This document shows, piece by piece, positions 3,650 through 64,000 of a DNA stretch of 64,000 nucleotides. Below the pieces are notes generated by a model that searched no databases, was not told the origin of the DNA, and saw nothing but the letters and a program-made list of their open reading frames with translations. The stretch lies in assembly GCA_002441305.1 (NCBI GenBank), contig DJVT01000003.1:39226-103225 (forward strand), given 5' to 3'. Position 1 is the first letter of the stretch. Every line of letters begins with the position of its first letter. The stretch comes from Candidatus Omnitrophica bacterium UBA6249 (GTDB lineage Bacteria > Omnitrophota > Gorgyraeia > Gygaellales > Profunditerraquicolaceae). The translations under genes were made by a program, and so were the position numbers.

Positions 3650-4782
3650 CAGAACACCTTCTTCTTGAACTTCTTTATCGCCAGGGAAAACATAAGCAAG
3701 GCAAAAAGCAGCAAAAACAAAGCCTCGTCCCACATCACGTCTATCCCGTTGCCTTTCAGGAAAAGGCCACGCAGTATTGTCACATAATAACGCGCCGGGA
3801 TAAAATAAGTGACTGCCTGGACAGCCTGTGGCATATTGAATATCGGGTAGATAAAACCAGACAGGAGCATCGTCGGGATAAATGTGGTCAACATAGCCAG
3901 CTGGCTGGCCAGAAGCTGCGATCTGGCGACGGTAGAGATAAATATCCCCTGCGAAAGGGCACCGACCAGGAACAAGGAACTTAAGAATACAAGCAGGCTG
4001 TAGCTCCCCCTGAAAGGAACGCCGAAAAACAGCCTGGCCATCACCACTCCCACAAAAAGGTCAAGGAAACCGATCGTAAAATACGGGATGAATTTGCCAA
4101 TGATCAACTCCGGGGCTTTCACGGGAGTGGAAATAAGCTGTTCCATCGTCCCCCTCTCCCACTCTTTGGCTACACAGATAGAAGTAAGCAAGGCGGCGAT
4201 GATCATGATAATCATCGCGATGACCCCGGGTACAATAAACCAGGTGCTGCTCAGGCTCATGTTGTACCATATCCTCGAACGCATATCTACGGAGCCCGGC
4301 TGGCTGACGCCATGGCGGTTAAGGAAATCGACGATCAGTTTTACGTTATAACCCGTTACTACGGAACGTACGTACCCCATGGCGATGGTGGCGGTATTGG
4401 AATCGCTTCCGTCAACAAGCAGCTGCAAAGGAGAGGATTTGCCCCCTTCGATAAAATGGGAAAAATCCTTGGGGATGACCAGGGCCATGATCACGTCCCC
4501 GCTGTCAATCATGCGCTGTATATCCCGGTAGTTATCCGTATATTTCACGATCTTGAAATACTTGGAGTTCCTGAAATTGAGCAGGAAATCGCGTGACAAC
4601 TGCGAAGAGGCATCCTGGTTCCATACTACGGTCCTCACCCTGTCTATATCCAGCGACAGGCCGTAGCCGAATATAAGCAGCAATAAGACGGGGATGAACA
4701 ACGCCAGGGCCAGAGAACGCGGGTCGCGGCGTATCTGGATAAATTCCTTACTGGATATGGCCAGGACTCTCTTAAAATTCAC
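3649..4782 (-). CDS. ABC-2 type transporter permease (YbhS/YbhR-like)
   Basis: 377 aa, paralogous to the downstream permease (SSKEFIQIRRDPRSL N-terminus and the same architecture). Confidence 0.85.
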   Translation of the reverse strand: MNFKRVLAISSKEFIQIRRDPRSLALALFIPVLLLLIFGYGLSLDIDRVRTVVWNQDASSQLSRDFLLNFRNSKYFKIVKYTDNYRDIQRMIDSGDVIMALVIPKDFSHFIEGGKSSPLQLLVDGSDSNTATIAMGYVRSVVTGYNVKLIVDFLNRHGVSQPGSVDMRSRIWYNMSLSSTWFIVPGVIAMIIMIIAALLTSICVAKEWERGTMEQLISTPVKAPELIIGKFIPYFTIGFLDLFVGVVMARLFFGVPFRGSYSLLVFLSSLFLVGALSQGIFISTVARSQLLASQLAMLTTFIPTMLLSGFIYPIFNMPQAVQAVTYFIPARYYVTILRGLFLKGNGIDVMWDEALFLLLFALLMFSLAIKKFKKKVF

Positions 4783-5750
4783 TTTTCCTTATGCTGTGCA
4801 TCATAATTCTCGATCAAGGAGACGAAAACGTCCTCGAGAGAAGCCTTGATCTTGTTTATGGAATACCCGCTCGCCCCCCGGCTGTCAAGAACCTTCTTTA
4901 TATCCAGCGCGGCCTTTTGCGCGTCAAAAACGACAGCATGGATATTCACTCCGAAAAGAGCGGTCTCTTTGACCGATTCCAGGCCTGATATCTCATCGAT
5001 CCACATCTCCGCCTGGGGCATGGACACTTCCAGGATCTCATGCTTCATGATACCGATCTTCATCTCTTCGGGGGAGCCCATGGCGATCATCGTACCGTGG
5101 TATATCATCACCAGGCGGTCGCAGTTCTCCGCCTCATCCATATAATGCGTAGTTACAAAAATAGTCTTCCCCTTGCTTGCCATCCCCTTGATTATATCCC
5201 AGAAGTTGGCACGGGTAATCGGGTCGACCCCGGAAGTCGGCTCATCCAAGAAAATAATATTCGGCTGATGGATTATCGCGCACCCCAAAGCCAGGCGCTG
5301 CTTCCACCCTCCGGAAAGGGTGCTGGTAAGGCTGGTGCGAAAACCCTCTATGCCGGCCAGCTCTATAGTCTCGTCCCTGCGCTTCAGTCTTTCCTTTTCC
5401 GGTATATTGTATATCCGGCTGTAGAAATCTATATTCTCTTCCACAGTCAGATCATCATACAGGGAGAACTTCTGCGACATATAACCTATATGCTCCTTGA
5501 TCCTGTACTGCTCCCTGATGATATCGAATCCCCCGACGCTGCCGCTGCCGGAAGTAGGCGTGTATATACCGCAAAGCATCCTGATCGTAGTGGACTTCCC
5601 CGCCCCGTTGGGCCCCAGGAAACCAAAAATCTCCCCCTGCCTGACTTCGAAGTCTATATGATTGACCGCGACGAAATCCCCGAACCTTTTTTCCAGGCCC
5701 TTCACCATCACGGCAACCCCGTTGTTCTTATTGCCCGGATTCATATTCAT
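4779..5750 (-). CDS. ABC transporter ATP-binding protein (YbhF-like half)
   Basis: Walker A GPNGAGKST, signature LSGGWKQR, Walker B IIFLDEPTSG. Confidence 0.9.
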   Translation of the reverse strand: MNMNPGNKNNGVAVMVKGLEKRFGDFVAVNHIDFEVRQGEIFGFLGPNGAGKSTTIRMLCGIYTPTSGSGSVGGFDIIREQYRIKEHIGYMSQKFSLYDDLTVEENIDFYSRIYNIPEKERLKRRDETIELAGIEGFRTSLTSTLSGGWKQRLALGCAIIHQPNIIFLDEPTSGVDPITRANFWDIIKGMASKGKTIFVTTHYMDEAENCDRLVMIYHGTMIAMGSPEEMKIGIMKHEILEVSMPQAEMWIDEISGLESVKETALFGVNIHAVVFDAQKAALDIKKVLDSRGASGYSINKIKASLEDVFVSLIENYDAQHKEK

Positions 5751-56739: not shown

Positions 56740-56776
56740 CCCTACCTCCACAATCCAAACCGCAACATGGTAAATT

Positions 56777-56790
56777 CCGGTCGCGACCGG
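56777..56790. repeat. degenerate copy of the GGTAG..CGGTCGCGACCG..CTACC palindrome family
   Basis: The core CCGGTCGCGACCGG is intact, but the flanks (GGTAAATT / GCGCCTACT) are no longer complementary. Confidence 0.7.
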
Positions 56791-56824
56791 CGCCTACTTA
56801 GTTTAAGAAAATAGAGCCGTCCCT

Positions 56825-57988
56825 TTATTCTATTTTTTGGCCGTCACTGCCGATAAAGATATTAAGATATTCGCGATATACGTAAGACTGCCCGTATTTA
56901 ATATCCTTGTCTTTGGGCGCCAATATGCCCTTTTCTATAAACCGGTTAATAACCGTCTGCGCTCCGGCACGCGTAAACCCTGTCCAATCCTTGACAAGTT
57001 TCACATTGACAATAGGCTGCGCGTATAATCTTGGCAAAACCATCACCGCGCTCTCCGAAGCCCTTTTACCCAGCGATTGTATCTTGGCCATATCCTTATC
57101 CCGCAAAACCGTAATCTTACCGACTATCTCTATAGCCTCATTTGCTATCTCGATAACCCCTTCAAGAAAAAACTCCACCCAGCTAGAGACATCTCCGTTG
57201 TGATATCCTTCGAGCTTTTCATAATATACTTTTTGATATTTTCTAAAATACGAGGATAAAAACAAAGCCGGTTTCTCCAAAAAACCTTCTTTCCATAAAT
57301 AAAACGGAATAAGCATCCGCCCTGTCCTGCCGTTGCCATCCAGAAACGGATGGATAGTTTCAAACTGAGCATGAAGCAGCCCGGCTTTTATCACCGTATG
57401 TGTAGCATCATCATTATGCATAAAATTTTCCAGATCGCCAAGCGCGCGCGTCATATCCTCAACCGGCGGCGGCACAAAACGCGCGTTATCCGGGCGTGTC
57501 CCGCCTATCCAGTTCTGGCTTCTTCGAAATTCTCCCGGATCCGAAAAATGTGTCTTCCTGGCGCCTTTCATTAACTGCTGATGCAGCTCGCGCATAAAAC
57601 GCAAGGTTATCGGGAAATTATCGGCAGTAACTCTTTTCATCCCATAATTGAGCGCTTTAATGTAATGCAGTATATCATCAACGTCCTCAGGGATATTGGC
57701 GCTCACCTTTACCTCAGCCTCAATGGCATCTACCATAGTCGCCATAGTGCCTTCAATCTGGCTGGAAGAAGCGGCATCTTTACGCAAATACATCAGAAGA
57801 AAGAAGTCTACGTCCGGCAGCAGTTTGGTTATACCATCAAGCTTGCCCAGCAAACGCGCCGCTTCTGTAGCTTTTTTTAAAATACCAGAAGAGAAATCAA
57901 ACCCCTCTTTCGGCGGAAAAGGATGCGGCACAAAGGCTTCGAAACCTTCCTTTTGACGCCTTTTTAGCCCTATTTCGATCAGTTTCAT
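56825..57988 (-). CDS. Fic-family protein (AMPylase-type) with autoinhibitory motif
   Basis: Fic motif HPFLDGNGRTGR, N-terminal SSQIEG matching the (S/T)xxxE(G/N) inhibitory helix, and a C-terminal wHTH-like tail. Confidence 0.9.
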   Translation of the reverse strand: MKLIEIGLKRRQKEGFEAFVPHPFPPKEGFDFSSGILKKATEAARLLGKLDGITKLLPDVDFFLLMYLRKDAASSSQIEGTMATMVDAIEAEVKVSANIPEDVDDILHYIKALNYGMKRVTADNFPITLRFMRELHQQLMKGARKTHFSDPGEFRRSQNWIGGTRPDNARFVPPPVEDMTRALGDLENFMHNDDATHTVIKAGLLHAQFETIHPFLDGNGRTGRMLIPFYLWKEGFLEKPALFLSSYFRKYQKVYYEKLEGYHNGDVSSWVEFFLEGVIEIANEAIEIVGKITVLRDKDMAKIQSLGKRASESAVMVLPRLYAQPIVNVKLVKDWTGFTRAGAQTVINRFIEKGILAPKDKDIKYGQSYVYREYLNIFIGSDGQKIE

Positions 57989-58050: not shown

Positions 58051-58094
58051 GGATTAGATACAAGATACCTATTATACCTAAGGGGCATTTCTAT

Positions 58095-58124
58095 GGTAGA
58101 TGCCGGTCGCGACCGGCATCTACC
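58095..58124. repeat. 30-nt perfect palindrome
   Basis: GGTAGATGCCGGTCGCGACCGGCATCTACC is its own reverse complement. Confidence 0.95.
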
Positions 58125-58153
58125 AGGTTTTCTCAACCATCCCCTTTATTTCA

Positions 58154-58899
58154 TCACCGCGCCATCAACGCAAACACACCCCAACCCAGGTACTCACGCG
58201 TGTAAGTAGCGTAGCGCTCGGGTCCCGAGGTAAGTTCGGCTCGAACCTCTTTTGCCAGCTCATCGCCTGGATTGGCTTCAAGCCAGCGGCGCATGGTGAG
58301 CCATTTGGCCGCCTCGTATCTATCCCAACCGTCTTGGTTGGCCAAAACCATTTCCACGACATCGTAACCAAGTCGGCCAAAAGACGCCAGAAGTTCCGGA
58401 AGCATAAGGAAGTCAGAGATTGAGGTGGCAAGACACCCCTTGGCAACATCTTCTGTCGGCGGTAACTGCCGCCAGTAGGGCTCGCCGATGAGGATAATCC
58501 CTCCTTTACGCAGGCTCCGCGCCAGAAGCTCGATCGTGCCGGCAACTCCCCCGCCAATCCAGGCGGCGCCGACACAGGCTGCACATCGACCTTCTCGTCA
58601 GAGACATACCCGGCAGCATCGCCATGAATAAACTTTACTTTATCTGCAACGCCGAGTTCTACAGCGCGGAGTTTCGCTTGCTCGCTGAACAACTCACTCA
58701 TATCAACGCCGGTGCCGATGATTCCGTAATCACGTGCCCAAGTGCACAACATCTCCCCCGAGCCGCTGCCAAGGTCAAGCACTCTATCTCCTTTTTTCAG
58801 ACGCAGCGCCGCGCCCAGAGTAGCGAACTTTTCCGGCGTAAACGGATTGTGAATGCGATGAGCGCTTTCAGTAATATTAAATATACGTGGAATGTCCAT
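58154..58899 (-). pseudogene. class I SAM-dependent methyltransferase interrupted by a single frameshift
   Basis: The N-terminal frame carries VLDLGSGSGEM up to ...DEKVDV. The sensible continuation AACVGAAWIGGGVAGTIELLARSLRKGGIILIGEPYWRQLPP...MLPELLASFGRLGYDVVEM... is in another frame. The switch lies near 58575-58590. Confidence 0.75.
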
Positions 58900-59049
58900 T
58901 GCAAAAATCTCCTTTTCTTAAAACTAATGGGTCTCTACTTAATCGTATTTACGCGCATAGTTCTCAAATAATGACTCATACCATTGCCTCATATTTATTC
59001 TTTTGTCCGTACTGACTAACCCCAGCAAACTACCCATATCTTATTAAAT

Positions 59050-59307
59050 CTATAAAAAAGTCTTAACTAAAAGTACAACTGTTAAGATTAACATTACCCA
59101 AGTCAATCCTTTGATCGTTTTTGTTAATTTTATCATCGCTTCATTTTGTTGCTGAGTTATTTTAGCAGATCTACAATTTAAAATAGCTTTTGCCACTTCT
59201 CTATTTCTTTCAGCTAGAGGTTCTCCAGACCCCATAAAACACTGCTTCAGAATATATTCTATTAACTCTTCATCAGTTTTTTTGTTTAATTCATCTAGAT
59301 ACGACAT
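59050..59307 (-). CDS. small tail-anchored membrane protein, unknown function
   Basis: Start chosen at the ATG preceded by GAAGGAGAGAA. The 85-aa product is MSYLDELNKK...KGLTWVMLILTVVLLVKTFL with a single C-terminal TM. The gene is AT-rich. Confidence 0.5.
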   Translation of the reverse strand: MSYLDELNKKTDEELIEYILKQCFMGSGEPLAERNREVAKAILNCRSAKITQQQNEAMIKLTKTIKGLTWVMLILTVVLLVKTFL

Positions 59308-59388
59308 TTCTCTCCTTCTCATGCAGCAATCACAAATTAGCAACAATAATCTTATAGGCGCTTCTTGGGTTTTGTTTCCTCGGAGTAA

Positions 59389-59502
59389 CATGGTAGGTGC
59401 AGATCGTAACCCGATATTTCATTGTAATCTGGTAGGTGTCGGTCGCGACCGACACCTACCAGGTGATGATTAGATCGTGAATTGCGACCTGCACCTACCA
59501 TG
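59389..59502. repeat. nested palindromes: a 30-nt perfect palindrome inside a split copy of the same family
   Basis: The inner unit is GGTAGGTGTCGGTCGCGACCGACACCTACC (59431-59460). The outer arms CATGGTAGGTGCAG (59389-59402) and CTGCACCTACCATG (59489-59502) are perfectly complementary. AGATCGT(A/G)A is repeated at 59401-59409 and 59472-59480. Confidence 0.9.
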
Positions 59503-59525
59503 GTTTTTTCTTTCCAATCGCCCCC

Positions 59526-60023
59526 TTAAAATAAATTCTCTACTACCCAACCACAATTCAAACATTCTCTATAGTCTTCTTTTTGAATAGTTTTGCAAAA
59601 CGGACAGACCCATTCTCCATTTCTAATTTCAAGCAAATCTCTTTTTTTAAATTCAAATAATGCTTTTGCAAAAACACTCTTTACAGAAAACCCCTCCTTA
59701 GACCAATGATTAACAAAATCCTTAACTTTCCTATTGTTAAAGAAAACCGACCAATAAAATTCTTCTTTTTTACTTATTCCCTTTATATATATGAAAACGA
59801 AACTCCACACAAAAATAAGGAATAATATACAAAGCAAAATATTAAAATGGCTAACGAACACTAGTATTAAAAAACTAACAATGATTGATCTGAAATAGCA
59901 CGTCATCTTTTTATCTAAGAAATTAGAAAGATCATAAAGTACACTATCCTTATAGAAAATACCAAGAGATTTTAAACTTATAATTTTGATATTTATATCC
60001 CCTTGCCAAATATCGCTTGCCAT
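59526..60023 (-). CDS. two-TM membrane protein with C-terminal zinc-ribbon, unknown function
   Basis: GGAG RBS. The hydrophobic stretch FRSIIVSFLILVFVSHFNILLCILFLIFVWSFVFIYI is followed by the C-terminal CPFC...CLNC. The gene is AT-rich. Confidence 0.55.
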   Translation of the reverse strand: MASDIWQGDINIKIISLKSLGIFYKDSVLYDLSNFLDKKMTCYFRSIIVSFLILVFVSHFNILLCILFLIFVWSFVFIYIKGISKKEEFYWSVFFNNRKVKDFVNHWSKEGFSVKSVFAKALFEFKKRDLLEIRNGEWVCPFCKTIQKEDYRECLNCGWVVENLF

Positions 60024-60076
60024 TTTCCATCTCCGAACTCACTGGTGTCCTAAATCGAATAATCTAAAAACATATA

Positions 60077-60120
60077 TATACTTTCTTCTTCCTCGACCGC
60101 ATTTACTTAAACCCCAGAGA
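60077..60120. repeat. intergenic ~44-nt direct repeat, copy A
   Basis: TATACTTTCTTCTTCCTCGACCGCATTTACTTAAACCCCAGAGA matches copy B at 32 of the first 39 positions (ungapped, counted by hand). Confidence 0.8.
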
Positions 60121-60124
60121 ACAT

Positions 60125-60159
60125 CACTTATTTTAAAAAATAGAACCGTCCCCTTTATT
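60125..60159. repeat. 35-nt direct repeat shared with 56795-56829
   Basis: CACTTATTTTAAAAAATAGAACCGTCCCCTTTATT versus TACTTAGTTTAAGAAAATAGAGCCGTCCCTTTATT. Both abut or overlap a gene stop codon. Confidence 0.75.
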
Positions 60160-60160
60160 T

Positions 60161-60832
60161 TTAATGTTCCAATAAAGGGATATAGAACTTTCCATGACGC
60201 CCTTCATGCCGAGATAATAGTCGGCAACTCTTTAACAAAGAAATAATCTTAGCGAATCGACAAGCCGTTCCGCTCATTAATGCCCTAATTTGCTGTTCTC
60301 CTTGTGGCCCATGATCTCGAATATTTTGTAAAATCAACAAACCGATTTGTCGATACCTTTCTGGCGCTCCAGTAACTTCACATTTACCATTAAATATCTG
60401 GAAATCAGCTCCATAAGGAATCTTTAACAATTCATTTCTTACATGTGTTTCTAAATCTCCGATATGTATATAATTCTTTCTAGATAAATGTCCAATATCA
60501 GTCAATAACCAACCAGGAATTTTACCTCTAGATCTTCTATTTCTAAAGGTTATAAAAATTGAACTGGATGGTTTAATCGAGAGGGCATATCCTAATTCAA
60601 GGACTACATTAGGCCTAAAACCAGTTACGTCAAAAACACAAGCTGATGAATTTTCTATGTTTTCCTTGATTAATTCCCATATATCTTCTGCAGGTTGTCC
60701 AATACGTTTATCTATTATTACACATAAAAGGGGTGTATCTTTTTCTATCCTTTTCTTAAGATTATCAAACTGCCGCTTGATCTTTTTGTCATTATAATTA
60801 CACCCTAGAAATATTCGATTACGATCAATCAT
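60161..60832 (-). CDS. unknown protein: N-terminal TIR/nucleoside-2-deoxyribosyltransferase-like Rossmannoid domain plus C-terminal wHTH-like domain
   Basis: GGAG RBS. RIFLGCNYND...SSACVFDVTGFRPNVVLELGYALS resembles the D-x-T/G...N-V..E-x-G-x-A signature of NDT/TIR-like domains. The C-terminus GEQQIRALMSGTACRFAKIISLLKSCRLLSRHEGRHGKFY is wHTH-like. The gene is AT-rich. Confidence 0.45.
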   Translation of the reverse strand: MIDRNRIFLGCNYNDKKIKRQFDNLKKRIEKDTPLLCVIIDKRIGQPAEDIWELIKENIENSSACVFDVTGFRPNVVLELGYALSIKPSSSIFITFRNRRSRGKIPGWLLTDIGHLSRKNYIHIGDLETHVRNELLKIPYGADFQIFNGKCEVTGAPERYRQIGLLILQNIRDHGPQGEQQIRALMSGTACRFAKIISLLKSCRLLSRHEGRHGKFYIPLLEH

Positions 60833-60896
60833 TTATACTCCTTTTTTTTAAAAAATCTCCACCCTTGACAAAATTCTTAAAACCTAGAGACCCTTG

Positions 60897-60940
60897 TATA
60901 GTTTCTGCTTCCTCGGCCGTAGCGACTTAAACCCCGAGAG
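60897..60940. repeat. intergenic ~44-nt direct repeat, copy B
   Basis: The sequence is TATAGTTTCTGCTTCCTCGGCCGTAGCGACTTAAACCCCGAGAG, in the same orientation as copy A and 820 nt from it. Confidence 0.8.
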
Positions 60941-60953
60941 CGTTCTTTAAGTA

Positions 60954-61781
60954 TTATAAGAATATATCAGCTATCTTTAAATCTCGTACCAATTCAACAG
61001 TTTTATTGTTATACTTAATCAAAAATCTTTGGGTATCGTTTATATCTAATGTATTTTGAGGAAAACCGAAGTAAAATGAAGATTTGATGTTATCCTTGTT
61101 ATAAAATTGCTCTCTTGAAATAGAGCATCGCACTCCGATAGCATTCCCTAAATCACTTCTCCTAAAATGCGGGACTGCTTGATGTTTTAATCGATTCGCC
61201 TGATACTTAAACCTTAAATCCTTATTCAAGTTCTGTAATCCAACATACTTCTTTATTAAATCAGAGGAGAGACTCCCATTAAGCCATTTCTTAAATTCTT
61301 CAAATTTTATTTTACTAATAATCTCTCGAAGAGCCGTTTCCCATTCCTCTTCTTTAAGTTGGAATTTATTTAACACCTCATCTATTTTTTGTTTTGGGAA
61401 ATTACCGATAAGATCACTATAACTAGAATAAGCAACCCTAATCAACAACTTCAAATAATCAAAGCTAGCGTTGTAATAAACAATCGAATTCATAAGATAA
61501 TTACTTACTAATAATTCTTTAGCATTAGAATCATCACTTGAAAAAACAGTTCGACTAATTTTCTTCACTACAGATTCGGCAGATAATATTAAATTCATGC
61601 TCGCCAATTCTAAAACTGCTTTTGTATCTGCGTATTGATTAACAATAAGCACCCTATGGTTATCGTTCACCTCTCGATTCTTAAATAGCTTAACAGTAAG
61701 AGCTTGCGTTACAGATATATCCTCAAGCTTATCTAACCGCCAATTAATGTTGTCCTTTTCCGAAGCTATAAAATCAGCCAT
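60954..61781 (-). CDS. unknown helical protein, possibly HEPN-like
   Basis: 275 aa, AT-rich. YYNASFDYLKLLI and KYQANRLKHQ are reminiscent of N-x-x-K-H type HEPN families. This is weak, motif-level evidence only. Confidence 0.35.
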   Translation of the reverse strand: MADFIASEKDNINWRLDKLEDISVTQALTVKLFKNREVNDNHRVLIVNQYADTKAVLELASMNLILSAESVVKKISRTVFSSDDSNAKELLVSNYLMNSIVYYNASFDYLKLLIRVAYSSYSDLIGNFPKQKIDEVLNKFQLKEEEWETALREIISKIKFEEFKKWLNGSLSSDLIKKYVGLQNLNKDLRFKYQANRLKHQAVPHFRRSDLGNAIGVRCSISREQFYNKDNIKSSFYFGFPQNTLDINDTQRFLIKYNNKTVELVRDLKIADIFL

Positions 61782-61805
61782 CGCCCTTTTCTCATTGACT
61801 TTACC

Positions 61806-61967
61806 TTAATTCTTCTTATATTCCAACCCCTCCACCACTGCTTTAAACTCTTCCAACGCAGATTCCAGATCTTTAACAATATCTTCAGCGATTTCATCTG
61901 GATCAGGCAAGTTCTCCAGGTCTTCAAGTGAGTACTCTTTCAACCAGAAGGTGTCTCGAGTCGACAA
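61806..61967 (-). CDS. 53-aa acidic helical small ORF (possible gene remnant or small partner protein)
   Basis: Not in the track because it is under 60 aa. A TTG start at 61967 gives LSTRDTFWLKEYSLEDLENLPDPDEIAEDIVKDLESALEEFKAVVEGLEYKKN, with the stop at 61806. Confidence 0.25.
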   Translation of the reverse strand: MSTRDTFWLKEYSLEDLENLPDPDEIAEDIVKDLESALEEFKAVVEGLEYKKN

Positions 61968-62021
61968 TTATAATAGATTTCGTGCCCTTTATTAGCAGCC
62001 ACGGCGTAGTAATATAAAATG

Positions 62022-62510
62022 TTACGATGCTGGTCCACTTAATTTTTTATCAATCCTCTCAACTCCTTTAGCAGTCAAAATCTCCCCATTGAGTTGTAAT
62101 ATGTTTCCGTTTTGATGGGGACTAAAAGGAGCATACATAGCTATCAAACAATGCGGGATTTTATACGCTTCAAGCACTGAAAACTCACTATTGAAAATAA
62201 CACCAATCAAAAAATCGAATTCCTTCTTTTTAAGATTTCGAATAACTCCCAACTGGCGGGATTTGGTTACATCGCTTAATCGTCTAGATTTAATCTGATA
62301 CCGTACCCCTTTGGCATCAATAGCATCAAACCCCGCGTTTGAGCTCGTCTGGATAGAAAGTCCCAACTTTTCCGCAACCAACCACTCCGCATAATCGGCT
62401 ACGGGATTATTCCGCGTCTTAACAACACCGCGATCCTTGAGCTCATCCAAAACAGCGCCAAACGTGATCAACAGCTGACGAACTGATAGTTTCTTAAAAT
62501 TACCGATCAT
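62022..62510 (-). CDS. PD-(D/E)xK-like protein translationally coupled to hsdR
   Basis: Start trimmed to [14 protein letters not shown], whose ATG (62510-62508) overlaps the hsdR TGA (62509-62507) as [22 protein letters not shown] fits a D...(E/Q)xK nuclease-like core. Confidence 0.45.
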
Positions 62511-64000
62511 TCTGCTTTCTCCACCCACCAATCCGCCAATACTTCCGCCTGCTTCAACACGGTATCTACGGCTTTCTGTTGCATATCGGGTGGATAACCG
62601 TATTTATTCAGCGTACGCCGCACGATAACCATCAGGCGGGCGCGGGCGCTTTCTTTCAGATTCCAGTCGATACTGGCATTCTTGCGCACTTTGTCGGCTA
62701 TTTCCCGGGCAATAGTCTTCAGCGTTTCATCACCCAGAACCTTAACTGCGCTGTCATTTATTTCCAGAGCGGTATAAAAGGCGAATTCCTCCTTAGACAG
62801 TTTCAACTTCTCTGCTAAACCGTCCACTTCGCGCACCTGCCGGGCGATCGCCAGCAATTCCTCGATAATCTCTGCGGTAGACAGAAGGTTATTCTGATAC
62901 TTCTTAATCGACGCTTCCAGCAATTCCAACAGTTTCTTGCCTTCGGTAATGTTAAAATTCAGCCGCGCTTTAATCTCGTCGTTAAGTATTTTATTCAATA
63001 ACTCGATGCCCAGATTCTTATGCTGCAAATCTTTGACTTCCTGCAAAAACTCTTCGGAAAGTAACGATATCTCCGGCTTCTTGATCCCGGCCGCATCAAA
63101 GATATCCACGACTTCGATAGACTCGACCGCCTGGTTGACGATCTGGCGGATTGCGCTCTCATAATTCTTTTCTCCGGTCCCGCCTTCTCCCTCGAATTTA
63201 AGCAACCGCGCCCGCACAGACTGGAAAAAGGCGATCTCATTGCTCAATTTCAGCGCCTCTTCATGCGGCACAGCCAAAGCGAAAAGTTTGGAAAGCGCGG
63301 TCGCTTCCTTGATAAAACGCTCCTTCACCTGCTCTTGGGAAAGGATGAACTCTTCCGCCTGCAGGATAATCGACAACCGCTCCGCTGTACCCACCTTGAA
63401 GAACCGCAGATAATCGAACCCGTGGAATATCTGACGCACCACCTCGATTTTCTCGGCCAACATACCCATGGCTTTTTCCTGGGTCTGGGCCGGATCGCCC
63501 TTTCCCCCGGAACTGGCGTAAAACGCCAACGCCTCTTTCAGCGCATTGCCGATACCGATATAATCCACCACCAACCCGCCCGGTTTATCCAGAAAAACCC
63601 GGTTCACCCGGGCGATCGCCTGCATCAGCGTGTGGCCTTTCATCAGTTTATCGATATACATCGTATGCAAACACGGCACATCGAAGCCGGTAAGCCACAT
63701 ATCCCGGACAATCACCAGCTTTAACGGATCCGCAGGTTCTTTCATCCTCTCGGCAAGCACCTGGCGGTCATTTTTATTCGTGCGATGGCATTTGGGAATA
63801 ACCAGATCATCCGGATCCTCGGGATCGAATTCCAGCTTATCCGAAGACGACGAAGTCATCACCACCTTCAATGCCCCTTCCTTCAAATCCTCGCTATGCC
63901 ACTCCGGCCGCAAAGCGATAAGCGCATCGTACAAAGCCACGGCAATCCTGCGGCTCATCACCACGATCATAGCTTTGCCGGCAAACACTTCCGCACGCTT
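62507..64000 (-). CDS. hsdR: type I restriction enzyme R subunit, C-terminal part (5' end beyond window edge)
   Basis: Helicase C-terminal motif VI ([12 protein letters not shown]) and a long helical C-terminal region typical of HsdR. The reading frame is open to position 64000. Confidence 0.9.

Follow-up and report, generated by a model that had tools for sequence, protein, structure and literature searches.

Enzymes of the IS200/IS605 and RAYT groups act on single-stranded DNA with paired arms, and Y1 transposition has a known strand bias. Classical MITEs are derived from insertion sequences with DDE transposases and make target-site duplications. At the gene junctions of T4-type phages, Arbiol, Comeau and Krisch reportedly described in 2010 a set of promoter/stem-loop cassettes (PeSLs) for which modular shuffling was proposed.

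Among the closest described systems are the TIR repeat families and TIRtrons (TIRYT) of Di Nocera et al. 2013 (PMC3733652), in which long terminal inverted repeats enclose a RAYT-like Y1 transposase gene, and which correspond to subclass 2.1 of Quentin et al. 2018 (PMC6006769). The inverted repeats that flank TIRYT carry the motif GGGGWSAS, and in such elements the right repeat and the 3' end of the transposase gene overlap (PMC3733652, PMC6006769). Correia/NEMIS, RUP and ERIC serve as examples of bacterial MITEs in the background section of PMC3733652.

Here we describe a repeat found at two gene junctions of the window, i.e. the whole 64-kb stretch of Omnitrophota DNA that was analysed. The two repeats are probably truncated, and probably immobile, copies of a non-coding MITE-like or REPIN-like element of ~125 nt that belongs to a narrow clade of Omnitrophota.

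The repeats and their setting in the window

The repeats lie in an AT-rich block whose genes are all on the minus strand. The low G+C content already remarked on for this block is evident between 59000 and 62000, where it amounts to 32–35% vs ~50% elsewhere in the window. The first complete gene encodes 275 aa (60954..61781, minus strand). It has no assigned function and no match in Pfam or PADLOC, and its sole distant homologue (59% identity) lies within another type I restriction-modification operon. Upstream of it, the imported block ends at a 53-aa ORF (61806..61967, minus strand), a 3' piece of a type I methylase gene (hsdM) that shares 80% identity across 122 nt with the corresponding end of hsdM in the related metagenomic locus L020. 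The next gene encodes a 223-aa TIR-like or nucleoside 2-deoxyribosyltransferase-like protein (60161..60832, minus strand), which matches Pfam CAP12-PCTIR_TIR at E = 8e-4, under the curated cutoff, and the PADLOC TIR effector with a score of 2e-6. Its homologue in L020 (P0001) is 96% identical at the protein level, and the gene with its flanks forms a module common to the window and L020. Judged by eye, the product of the 165-aa gene (59526..60023, minus strand) may have a hydrophobic segment and, at its C-terminus, a CxxC...CxxC motif. The 85-aa gene (59050..59307, minus strand) closes the block and is annotated as a gene in public records. Family searches in Pfam and PADLOC were empty for both. 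Between these two genes there is a nested GTAG-type palindrome of REP-like appearance (59389..59502), which belongs to a separate family from the junction repeat, occurs also as a single copy at 58094-58128, and is restricted to loci of the same species as the window.

A repeat-pair search aligned 60052-60115 with 60872-60935 at 72% identity over 64 nt. The initial annotation had reported direct repeats of ~44 nt; these strings are present in the same orientation and agree at 32 of the first 39 positions, and the similarity reaches well past them to the full 64 nt. The search pattern proposed with them has two matches in the window and none in 100 dinucleotide-preserving shuffles. Using a core profile HMM trained without the window copies, and thus on copies from other genomes alone, nhmmer recovered both repeats, hereafter copy A (E = 1.4e-13) and copy B (E = 4.1e-9), and a profile search of the window's remaining 58 kb found no core copy. 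Their placement in gene sense is much as originally described, each repeat following one stop codon and ending 53–64 nt before the next start.

The core of copy A occupies the junction of the 275-aa and 223-aa genes, at 60892..60955 on the minus strand (60872-60935 in the repeat-pair alignment). Its sequence in gene sense is ...CTCTCGGGGTTTAAGT-CGCTA-CGGCCGAGGAAGCAGAAACTATA, and neither side carries a hairpin arm. The core of copy B (60072..60135, minus strand; 60052-60115 in the repeat-pair alignment) lies between the 223-aa and 165-aa genes and reads ...TTCTCTGGGGTTTAAGT-AAATG-CGGTCGAGGAAGAAGAAAGTATA. It is abutted by a left inverted-repeat arm, AAATAAAGGGGACGGTTCTATTTTT (60135..60160, minus strand), which immediately follows the 223-aa gene's stop codon and is recognized by an arm profile at E = 8e-9. 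No right arm matching it is present. This arm equals the two arms that flank a Y1 transposase gene in locus L032 at 26/26 and 28/28 positions, and copy B and the arm together share 85% identity with L032 2791-2877 across 89 nt (E = 2e-19).

A weaker third match had been suggested after the 85-aa gene. A candidate degenerate copy, GCTGGGGTTAGTCAGTACGG, is indeed found there (59005..59038, minus strand), at a gene junction and on the right strand, and it is the next-best match of the profile in the window after copies A and B. However, because its E-value is only 0.23, which is not significant, a third copy is not established. Homology to the backbone of locus L159 starts at ~58986, ~20 nt downstream of this candidate in gene sense. 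A marginal second arm, TAAAGGGACGGCTCTATTT (56805..56830, minus strand), overlaps the stop codon of the Fic gene, has three mismatches to the arm 19-mer and reaches an arm-profile E of 0.08; it is followed by the first core bases, TTAAACTAAGTA, and then by a degenerate GTAG-type palindrome. Degenerate arms seen by eye at 58138-58150, at 61981-61993 and after the 165-aa gene received no statistical support from the arm profile.

Copies in related genomes

A metagenome scan and profile searches identified at least ten further copies across five related Omnitrophota loci. They lie at 3655, 8655 and 9380 in L029, at 9236 and 11204 in L031, at 139 (partial), 1363 and 2822 in L032, at 1625 in L159 and at 5878 in L020. 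In total there are 12–13 copies at six loci, 2–3 per island, beside differing genes and at non-homologous sites. All are intergenic, oriented with the gene strand, and situated on the G-rich strand. This placement fits the strand bias of Y1 transposition, and equally plain co-orientation with the genes. Stop codons occur in every frame across the copies, and the element of ~125 nt is non-coding. Most copies fall between defence genes and adjoin the same backbone genes, the defence island occupying the same chromosomal position in several relatives.

These copies also bear on an account of the window repeats which the initial annotation had itself named as the alternative, i.e. a trivial local duplication of one intergenic spacer. 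The window alone would suit it, with two clear copies only, 820 nt apart. However, the further copies in related genomes lie beside unrelated genes, and the repeats are therefore not a local duplication. The condition that the initial annotation had set for its own refutation thus fails, which counts in its favour. Copy A is moreover 83–87% identical to copies in L029 and L031, nearer than it is to copy B (72%). The duplication account is already refuted, and we give it hardly any credence.

The distribution of the core is narrow. It does not occur in 120 arm-bearing segments from other species, in the loci of more distant homologues of the 223-aa gene (L023, L153-L158) or in those of the 275-aa gene homologues (L021, L022). 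A strict core pattern has no match among 185,579 species representatives, a set to which the source species apparently does not belong. The motif was considered as a general companion of the 223-aa gene family, and was rejected as such on its absence from the loci of the distant homologues. Three further metagenome matches (L026-L028) were treated as chance; two of the contigs look eukaryotic and the third is rich in G+C. A phage origin was likewise rejected: a loose core pattern gave four matches in IMG/VR, all in coding-looking sequence with dissimilar flanks, and neither the exact 23-mer of the core nor the arm 19-mer occurs in IMG/VR. The repeat family is chromosomal and is not in the viral collection. 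The arm sequence has a far wider range, being found across many bacterial phyla and some archaea, always in hairpins with unrelated loops.

Anatomy of the intact element and its probable transposase

The best-preserved copies, those of L032, consist of a ~65-nt core inside a perfect hairpin of 24–25 bp with arms AATAAAGGGGACGGTTCTATTTTT. The L032 fold, with a perfect stem of ~25 bp and a loop of ~75 nt, has a predicted energy of -49 kcal/mol (z = -7.0), and 0 of 200 shuffles were as good. The intact element comprises two inverted arms of 24–25 nt (AATAAAGGGGACGGTTCTATTTTT and its complement) around a conserved, unstructured interior of ~75 nt, and the 44-mer of the initial annotation represents the middle of that interior. 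Only the right arm is kept in copies of L031, L029 and L159. In roughly half of the copies the right arm is missing and the core is kept, 32–64 nt before a start codon. Core plus right arm are 76–91% identical over 75–104 nt among L029, L031 and L032, and arm and core have been copied together as one unit.

In L032 the same arms (4238-4262 and 4979-5008) flank an ORF of 225 aa (4238-5008). This ORF matches Pfam Y1_Tnp at 2e-15, its best NCBIfam match is the REP-associated tyrosine transposase (9e-17), and it carries HVH and KYIELNP motifs. It scores 61 bits with the REP_Tyr_transpos model, the cutoff of which is 80, and only 20 bits with the IS200 model; the protein has no sequence match to a solved structure. 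On these family matches, the best explanation of the gene is a putative RAYT-like or TIRYT-type Y1/HUH transposase ("TIRtron"). Since the same arms flank this gene, the repeats would be the interior of a MITE-like element. The transposase would copy such elements in trans, on single-stranded DNA with paired arms, by analogy with related enzymes.

At its inner right end the element shares 88% identity with the transposase gene's 3' end across 42 nt. The core as a whole was considered as a decayed 3' end of such a gene, and this was rejected because the homology is limited to the last 42 nt beside the right arm; alignments of the core with seven such genes were no better than shuffles (p > 0.05). 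A purine-rich stretch of the core can be read as RPRK, resembling the GRP(K/R)K tails of these transposases.

Comparison of L032 and L159 shows that homology in the PIF1 helicase region starts and stops exactly at the outer ends of the arms (between L032 positions 1461 and 1462 and between 2795 and 2796), as expected for a discrete inserted unit. The inserted segments contain genes too, besides the element; no pair of filled and empty sites differing by the element alone was found in this comparison, and no target-site duplication was seen.

Within the window, copy B retains the left arm and the interior, copy A only the interior, and tblastn with the Y1 transposase gave no match; the two copies would therefore be fossils. 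Several observations run against reading them as element remnants. With at most one arm each, the window copies cannot form the hairpin, and their folds are not superior to those of shuffles. The copy number is low and local, whereas typical MITE or REPIN families reach much higher copy numbers. A clean filled/empty pair for the element alone is missing from the L032/L159 comparison, and the 65-nt core has no significant similarity to the seven transposase genes compared. Moreover, both boundaries of the module that the window has in common with L020 fall at one point within the core, which a simple element model does not predict. We nevertheless consider an element of this kind the probable source of the repeats. 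The family, its anatomy, the arms in common with the transposase gene and the module breakpoints are demonstrated here, whereas we infer that the transposase mobilises the element and that recombination takes place at its copies. The present role of the copies, if any, may be that of passive patches of common sequence for the recombinational exchange of defence-gene modules.

Possible regulatory function

The persistence of the core where the arms have decayed could indicate alternative functionality, namely a selected cis-acting signal such as a site for a regulator or nucleoid protein, a promoter other than sigma-70, an unstructured 5'-UTR or an RNase site, which the element may have delivered originally. 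Every copy is oriented with the downstream gene, the 23-mer CGGCCGAGGAAGCAGAAACTATA recurs without change in three genomes besides the window, and copies without the right arm end 32–64 nt before the start codon, so that selection may act on the core itself. However, the genes downstream are functionally unrelated (TIR-like, probable membrane protein, nitroreductase, MFS transporter and PIF1 helicase) and no regulator gene travels along. Between the window and L020, the core is 83% identical, compared with 92% for the adjoining gene and 73% for the spacer; it is about as diverged as gene and spacer, and therefore shows no extra constraint.

The absence of a conserved hairpin and of a sigma70 fit was noted at the outset and holds: as DNA and as RNA, both strands of the window copies fold no better than shuffles (z from -0.4 to +1.8), copy B worse than almost all of them, and the repeats carry neither sigma-70-like -35/-10 hexamers spaced by 16–18 nt nor a terminator-like G+C-rich stem with a T run behind it. 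The 12 promoter-like sites and the single terminator-like site predicted all fall elsewhere, and their counts equal the shuffle expectation. In an informal look by eye, sigma-54, sigma-28, Bacteroidetes-type and phage-RNAP-type motifs gave no convincing fit. RNAalifold on 11 copies yielded -5.0 kcal/mol with a covariation term of -0.09 kcal/mol, and Rfam gave no match at either gathering or E-value thresholds. The suggestion of a shared regulatory or RNA-processing site thus finds no conserved RNA structure, covariation, Rfam family, or promoter or terminator consensus behind it, and we regard a selected cis-acting signal as distinctly improbable. An isolated CRISPR-like repeat was considered on account of the core ends, GTTTCC...AGAAAC, and rejected; no array is present in the window.

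Module boundaries within the repeat

In L020 the 223-aa module has different neighbouring genes, and in its comparison with the window both homology breakpoints of the module lie inside the repeat, within ~5 nt of the junction between GGGG and TTTAAGT. At the 5' boundary identity is 48% before this junction and 83% after it; at the 3' boundary it is 84% before and 44% after. The genes upstream of the two modules are unrelated. The repeat could accordingly be read as a cassette junction, i.e. a site of site-specific recombination or cleavage. Each module would begin with the right part of a core, followed by one or more genes, the left arm and a left core part, and modules would be joined head to tail at GGGG/TTTAAGT. 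A Y1/HUH enzyme would perhaps act in the loop of the arm hairpin, with a putative cut between GGGGTTTAAG and T and a putative box GGGGTTTAAGT, and the defence island would be an integrase-free analogue of an integron array. Defence modules are set apart by copies of the repeat in the window as well as in L029, L031 and L159, and in L159 the region upstream of the nitroreductase gene apparently has the left core without ~49 nt that are present in L029 (by eye).

However, the window and L020 supply one independent pair of breakpoints only, and the breakpoints between L032 and L159 are at the outer arm ends, outside the core. The PIF1 gene occurs in the same place without the repeat in L159 and in the contig of P0098. 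Among the called genes of the records covering this part of the window there is no recombinase or transposase, the tblastn search of the window with the Y1 transposase was empty, and the window copies offer no hairpin to a single-strand enzyme. We therefore consider a cassette junction unlikely. The more specific proposal that GGGG/TTTAAGT in the hairpin loop is the crossover or cleavage point, at which a Y1/HUH enzyme drives the excision and head-to-tail joining of mostly anti-phage modules at one chromosomal hotspot in these Omnitrophota, is about as unlikely. If true, it would amount to a cassette system that resembles integrons but is mechanistically new, with a Y1/HUH single-strand enzyme in place of the integron integrase.

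A true integron affiliation, with the repeats as attC sites of an integrase-less cluster (CALIN), is suggested by same-strand genes each followed by a similar sequence of 60–130 nt and by AT-rich cassettes of unassigned function. The defining features disagree. Neither strand of the window copies contains an R''-L''/L'-R' imperfect hairpin (57–141 nt), and there is no RYYYAAC...GTTRRRY pair; GTTTAAG fits GTTRRRY at 5/7 positions, with no inverse core at attC distance. The perfect 25-bp stem and 75-nt loop of L032 differ from attC, and the associated enzyme is a Y1/HUH transposase. The initial annotation had advised a search for a nearby site-specific recombinase; none was found up to 10 kb to either side of these two genes of 223 and 275 aa, which takes the search past the right end of the window, and no called gene within that range has a Phage_integrase domain. 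The attC reading is refuted on these features and has a negligible probability, and the dedicated recombination site that the annotation had also entertained is not the favoured reading. Its idea of modular assembly fares better in one respect, in that the repeats do lie at module boundaries (the 223-aa module and L020), while the better-preserved copies show the repeat as the interior of a small element bounded by inverted repeats, with the arms of the Y1 transposase gene. The annotation's interpretation is thus supported in part.

Significance

Under the preferred explanation, the relic of a small mobile element accounts for an odd-looking junction repeat, which thereby drops out as what had seemed a candidate for a novel system of regulation or recombination. 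The repeat is fairly ordinary in kind and happens to sit between anti-phage defence genes. The family was previously undescribed, comes from the uncultivated phylum Omnitrophota, and is tied to a transposase that is probably RAYT-like or of TIRYT type. Its copies occupy the seams of a variable defence island and may help to reshuffle defence genes. The widespread arm sequence may be the more interesting lead for research on HUH transposases.

Comparison with known systems

Integron cassettes also carry similar short sequences between same-strand genes, defence genes included, and here at least one module recurs elsewhere with breakpoints inside the repeat. However, there is no attC fold, core site or integron integrase, and the interior is conserved in sequence and not in structure. 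The PeSLs of T4-type phages similarly are short conserved intergenic repeats between unrelated small genes, proposed to provide homology for module exchange. In contrast to the window copies, which show neither feature, PeSLs reportedly have an early promoter and a terminator-like stem-loop, and the Omnitrophota family is chromosomal and was not found in the viral collection.

Bacterial MITEs resemble the element in being non-coding sequences of 70–300 bp with terminal inverted repeats of 15–30 bp that match those of a transposase-bearing element, inserted beside coding regions and forming a strong hairpin if transcribed. The partner here is, however, a putative Y1/HUH enzyme, for which no target-site duplication is expected, and none was seen. 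As in the REPIN/RAYT system of Bertels and Rainey 2011 (PMC3116915), a long hairpin arises from two short inverted repeats with a spacer of tens of bases between them, the units are intergenic and non-autonomous, and these repeats also border a single Y1 transposase gene. Unlike those of REPINs, the Omnitrophota arms are not palindromic themselves and lack the GTAG tag, the copies are few as opposed to hundreds, and the arm sequence is common across phyla instead of being lineage-specific.

The element also resembles the TIRtrons. It differs from these in that one dimer has a conserved interior of ~75 nt which is itself copied and often outlives the arms, a feature not described in the available portions of PMC3733652 or PMC6006769, and in that the Omnitrophota transposase scores under the NCBI RAYT cutoff. 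As in TIRtrons, the same arms are found elsewhere as single units and dimers, with moderate or low copy numbers, and the arms contain GGGGACGG, which differs from the motif GGGGWSAS (PMC3733652) by a single base. As in TIRtrons, too, the Y1/HUH gene lies between inverted repeats of ~25 nt, the right one of which overlaps the 3' end of the gene.

Repeats at the gene junctions

Two copies of a repeat lie in the AT-rich block. The explanation that fits them best is a lineage-specific MITE-like or TIR-dimer element, associated with a RAYT-like Y1 transposase, of which they would be relics. Copy A lies between the genes encoding proteins of 275 and 223 amino acids (aa), and copy B between the 223-aa and 165-aa genes. 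The 44-nt strings of the initial annotation (60077–60120 and 60897–60940) are present, with 32 of the first 39 positions identical, and a repeat search lengthens the pair to 64 nt at 72% identity (60052–60115 and 60872–60935). The window holds two matches to the pattern drawn from them, and 100 dinucleotide-preserving shuffles yield none. The genes of the region are all on the minus strand, so the repeats are read here in gene sense, as the reverse complement. In this orientation the copies share the sequence ...TCTC(T/C)GGGGTTTAAGT - 5 nt - CGG(C/T)CGAGGAAG(C/A)AGAAA(C/G)TATA.... Each follows a stop codon and ends 53–64 nt upstream of the next start, in agreement with the junction placement first proposed. 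A profile trained on other genomes alone, with the window copies left out, recovers both (E = 1.4e-13 for copy A and 4.1e-9 for copy B), and the pair is real, not a local accident. The next-best match to this profile in the window (59005–59038) is on the correct strand and at a gene junction; with E = 0.23, the weaker third copy suggested there is not established.

The reported lack of a shared hairpin holds on either strand, with copies A and B folded as RNA or as DNA. Likewise, no sigma-70-like site falls on the repeats, nor does any terminator-like site, and a sigma-70 promoter or a terminator was rejected. A structured RNA was also rejected, as the proposed covariation check gave an RNAalifold covariation term of -0.09 and the repeats have no Rfam match. 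The integron attC reading was rejected too: the repeats have neither its fold nor its core sites, and the look for a nearby recombinase that had been advised turned up no integrase up to 10 kb from the 223-aa and 275-aa genes. A CRISPR-like repeat was dismissed on the absence of an array.

Genomic setting

Family and PADLOC searches place the block (32–35% G+C at 59000–62000, compared with about 50% in the rest of the window) inside a dense defence island. The window itself was assigned to a Candidatus Omnitrophota metagenome-assembled genome (GCA_028711535.1, contig JAQTRZ010000003.1). Listed in gene order, the members of the island begin with HsdR, a type I restriction subunit; hsdS, SIR2_2 with a HerA-like ATPase and an Mrr-like gene lie just past the right end of the window (1–9275 of L011, the record stretch that continues there). 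There follow a DUF6998 protein (62022–62531), a methyl-directed restriction enzyme according to PADLOC (5.5e-57), the AT-rich block, an apparently frameshifted methyltransferase gene, a SoFic-type Fic protein (56825–57988; PADLOC 6.8e-108) and, last, housekeeping-like genes (nitroreductase, GNAT, FMN reductase and others). The SAM-methyltransferase region (58154–58899) has no NCBI gene call. The N-terminal half is in an ORF at 58165–58899, with a plausible C-terminus in an ORF of another frame (58154–58405), and the orthologue in the related Omnitrophota metagenomic locus L159 is intact (248 aa).

A 53-aa ORF (61806–61967) opens the block, and four genes, encoding 275, 223 (TIR-like), 165 and 85 aa, come after it. 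The 53-aa ORF is the 3' end of hsdM, a type I methylase gene (80% identity over 122 nt with the hsdM of L020, another related locus). With this fragment at its head, the block looks like part of another, lower-G+C type I restriction-modification operon, which seems to have recombined in downstream of this genome's hsdR. The block is base-for-base identical in about twenty contigs from independent samples, which rules out an assembly artefact; these contigs contribute no sequence variation. Homologues of the 275-aa and 223-aa genes elsewhere (L021/L022 and L020) lie within type I restriction-modification operons, between hsdM/hsdS and hsdR. This arrangement suggests that they are accessory genes habitually riding in such operons.

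A second, unrelated repeat family consists of GTAG-tagged palindromes (TGGTAG.TG.CGGTCGCGACCG.CA.CTACCA) located after the methyltransferase gene (single, 58094–58128), the 165-aa gene (nested pair, 59389–59502) and the Fic gene (degenerate, about 56775–56800). Matches to it came solely from loci of the same species, with none in the loci of relatives, and Rfam microRNA matches to it are spurious.

Copies in related loci

The strict core pattern has no match among 185,579 species-representative genomes, and only chance coding matches in viral contigs. A three-copy consensus (CGGNCGAGGNAGNAGAAANTATA) used as query against metagenome collections retrieved real copies, and profile searches of those loci, together with loci fetched through nitroreductase orthologues, supplied more. 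The family totals twelve or thirteen copies, found in the window (two) and in the related loci L020 (one), L029 (three), L031 (two), L032 (two and one partial) and L159 (one). These further copies, sought among relatives as the initial annotation had advised, refute a trivial local duplication. L020 has the motif on the 5' side of a gene homologous to the 223-aa gene (96% identity), where the upstream neighbour is a different one. All copies are intergenic, on the strand of the flanking genes and on the G-rich strand. The loci that carry them are low-G+C runs of mostly defence genes (Schlafen-type helicase with S24 peptidase domain, HNH, DEAD helicase, SMC-like ATPase, DNA methylases, AlbA_2/HATPase and restriction endonuclease) and adjoin backbone genes that they share with the window (nitroreductase, FMN reductase and CBAH). 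Relatives with a nitroreductase about 85–86% identical have no copies within 20 kb, and the family is small and local for a transposable element.

An exact 23-mer (CGGCCGAGGAAGCAGAAACTATA) also occurs in a eukaryotic-looking metagenome contig with few ORFs (L028, 2218–2240), and its bases at the four free positions are all those of the family consensus. About three chance matches are expected from a rough estimate of collection size, so this one is probably due to chance.

An intact element and an associated transposase gene

In L032 the core stands between perfectly complementary arms, AATAAAGGGGACGGTTCTATTTTT and its reverse complement, which pair into a 25-bp stem closing a loop of some 75 nt (-49 kcal/mol, z = -7.0). 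Two complete arm-core-arm units flank a PIF1 helicase gene, and about 1.3 kb further along the same two arms bracket a 225-aa ORF. This ORF is a Y1 transposase (Pfam Y1_Tnp, 2e-15) with visible HVH and KYIELNP motifs; its closest NCBIfam model is the REP-associated tyrosine transposase (9e-17, below cutoff), the IS200 model being far weaker. The gene terminates within the right arm, which contains its stop codon, and the small elements repeat the 17 nt preceding that arm (88% over 42 nt). Over 89 nt, window copy B and its arm share 85% identity with L032 (E = 2e-19), and core plus right arm are 76–91% identical over 75–104 nt among L029, L031 and L032. From these alignments, arm and core have been copied together as one composite, whose anatomy is that of a miniature, non-autonomous element derived from one that carries a transposase. 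Any relation between the core and the Y1 transposase genes compared is undetectable. By analogy with what is established for IS200/IS605 and RAYT enzymes, the arms here would pair as single strands at the replication fork, with the element moved in trans.

Copy B retains its left arm (E = 8e-9; 26–28 of 26–28 positions matching the L032 arms) and core, with the right arm missing, while copy A has nothing but the core. At the Fic gene, a second, marginal arm overlaps the stop codon. Neither window copy is able to form the hairpin, a tblastn search of the window with the L032 transposase finds no homologue, and the copies are taken to be fossils. Across the family the right arm is lost in about half of the copies, and the left arm in several.

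An arm 19-mer (AAAGGGGACGGTTCTATTT, 60138–60156) occurs exactly in at least 120 species-representative stretches. Hosts among the matches listed include Omnitrophota, Aminicenantes, Nitrospirae, Smithella, Planctomycetia, Bacteroidales, Clostridia and Coriobacteriia, as well as a Levybacteria (CPR) genome and an Aenigmatarchaeota genome. Among these listed matches the 19-mer is usually in inverted pairs 23–96 nt apart, forming hairpins whose loops are all different and unrelated, even within one genome, and a Y1 transposase homologue lies beside the arm in about nine loci. A TAG stop falls inside the right arm in five of the seven Y1 loci with an examined 3' end. IMG/VR holds no exact match to the 19-mer; on this count, and with the viral-contig matches to the core being chance coding, a phage-borne element was rejected. 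The arm sequence deserves follow-up.

Breakpoints and possible role

Around PIF1, the limits of homology between L032 and L159 coincide exactly with the outer ends of the arms. This fits a discrete inserted unit, although the inserted segments also carry genes. L159 lacks a 1.36-kb insertion (MFS gene and elements) of L032, at whose left edge a 38-nt duplicate of the PIF1 helicase 5' coding region (102–139) lies directly after the nitroreductase stop.

The 223-aa module breaks differently between the window and L020. The gene is 92% identical and the upstream genes are unrelated, with both breakpoints within about 5 nt of GGGG|TTTAAGT, a box inside the core (the bar marks the break). Identity across the 5' junction rises from 48% to 83% at this point; at the 3' junction it falls from 84% (arm and left part of the core) to 44%. 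The box might be a preferred crossover or cleavage point, a reading of low probability. Also bearing on it is the region upstream of the nitroreductase, where, read by eye, L159 seems to have retained the left part of the core without about 49 nt present in L029. The tail of copies without a right arm (TCT.GGTTTTAAG) resembles the GGGGTTTAAG box, so that about 45 nt of core is flanked by a loose direct repeat, a further feature behind this reading. However, a single module comparison is too little to establish this, and the L032/L159 comparison points the opposite way.

With the copies regarded as relics of the MITE-like or TIR-dimer element, a possible role as seams for swapping defence modules deserves follow-up. 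Of the modular-assembly, regulatory or recombination functions first suggested, none is favoured over this element, although both breaks of the 223-aa module fall inside the core; no sigma-70 promoter, conserved RNA structure or attC features were found.

Comparison with known systems

The element is similar to REPINs, but its arms are without the GTAG tag and are not themselves palindromic. TIRtrons or TIRYTs (Di Nocera et al.) are RAYT-like genes that lie between long inverted repeats. These repeats have GGGGWSAS in common, sometimes overlap the 3' end of the gene, and form moderately abundant families of singles or dimers (PMC3733652; PMC6006769). The L032 Y1 gene and its arms match this description, with GGGGACGG as the counterpart of GGGGWSAS.
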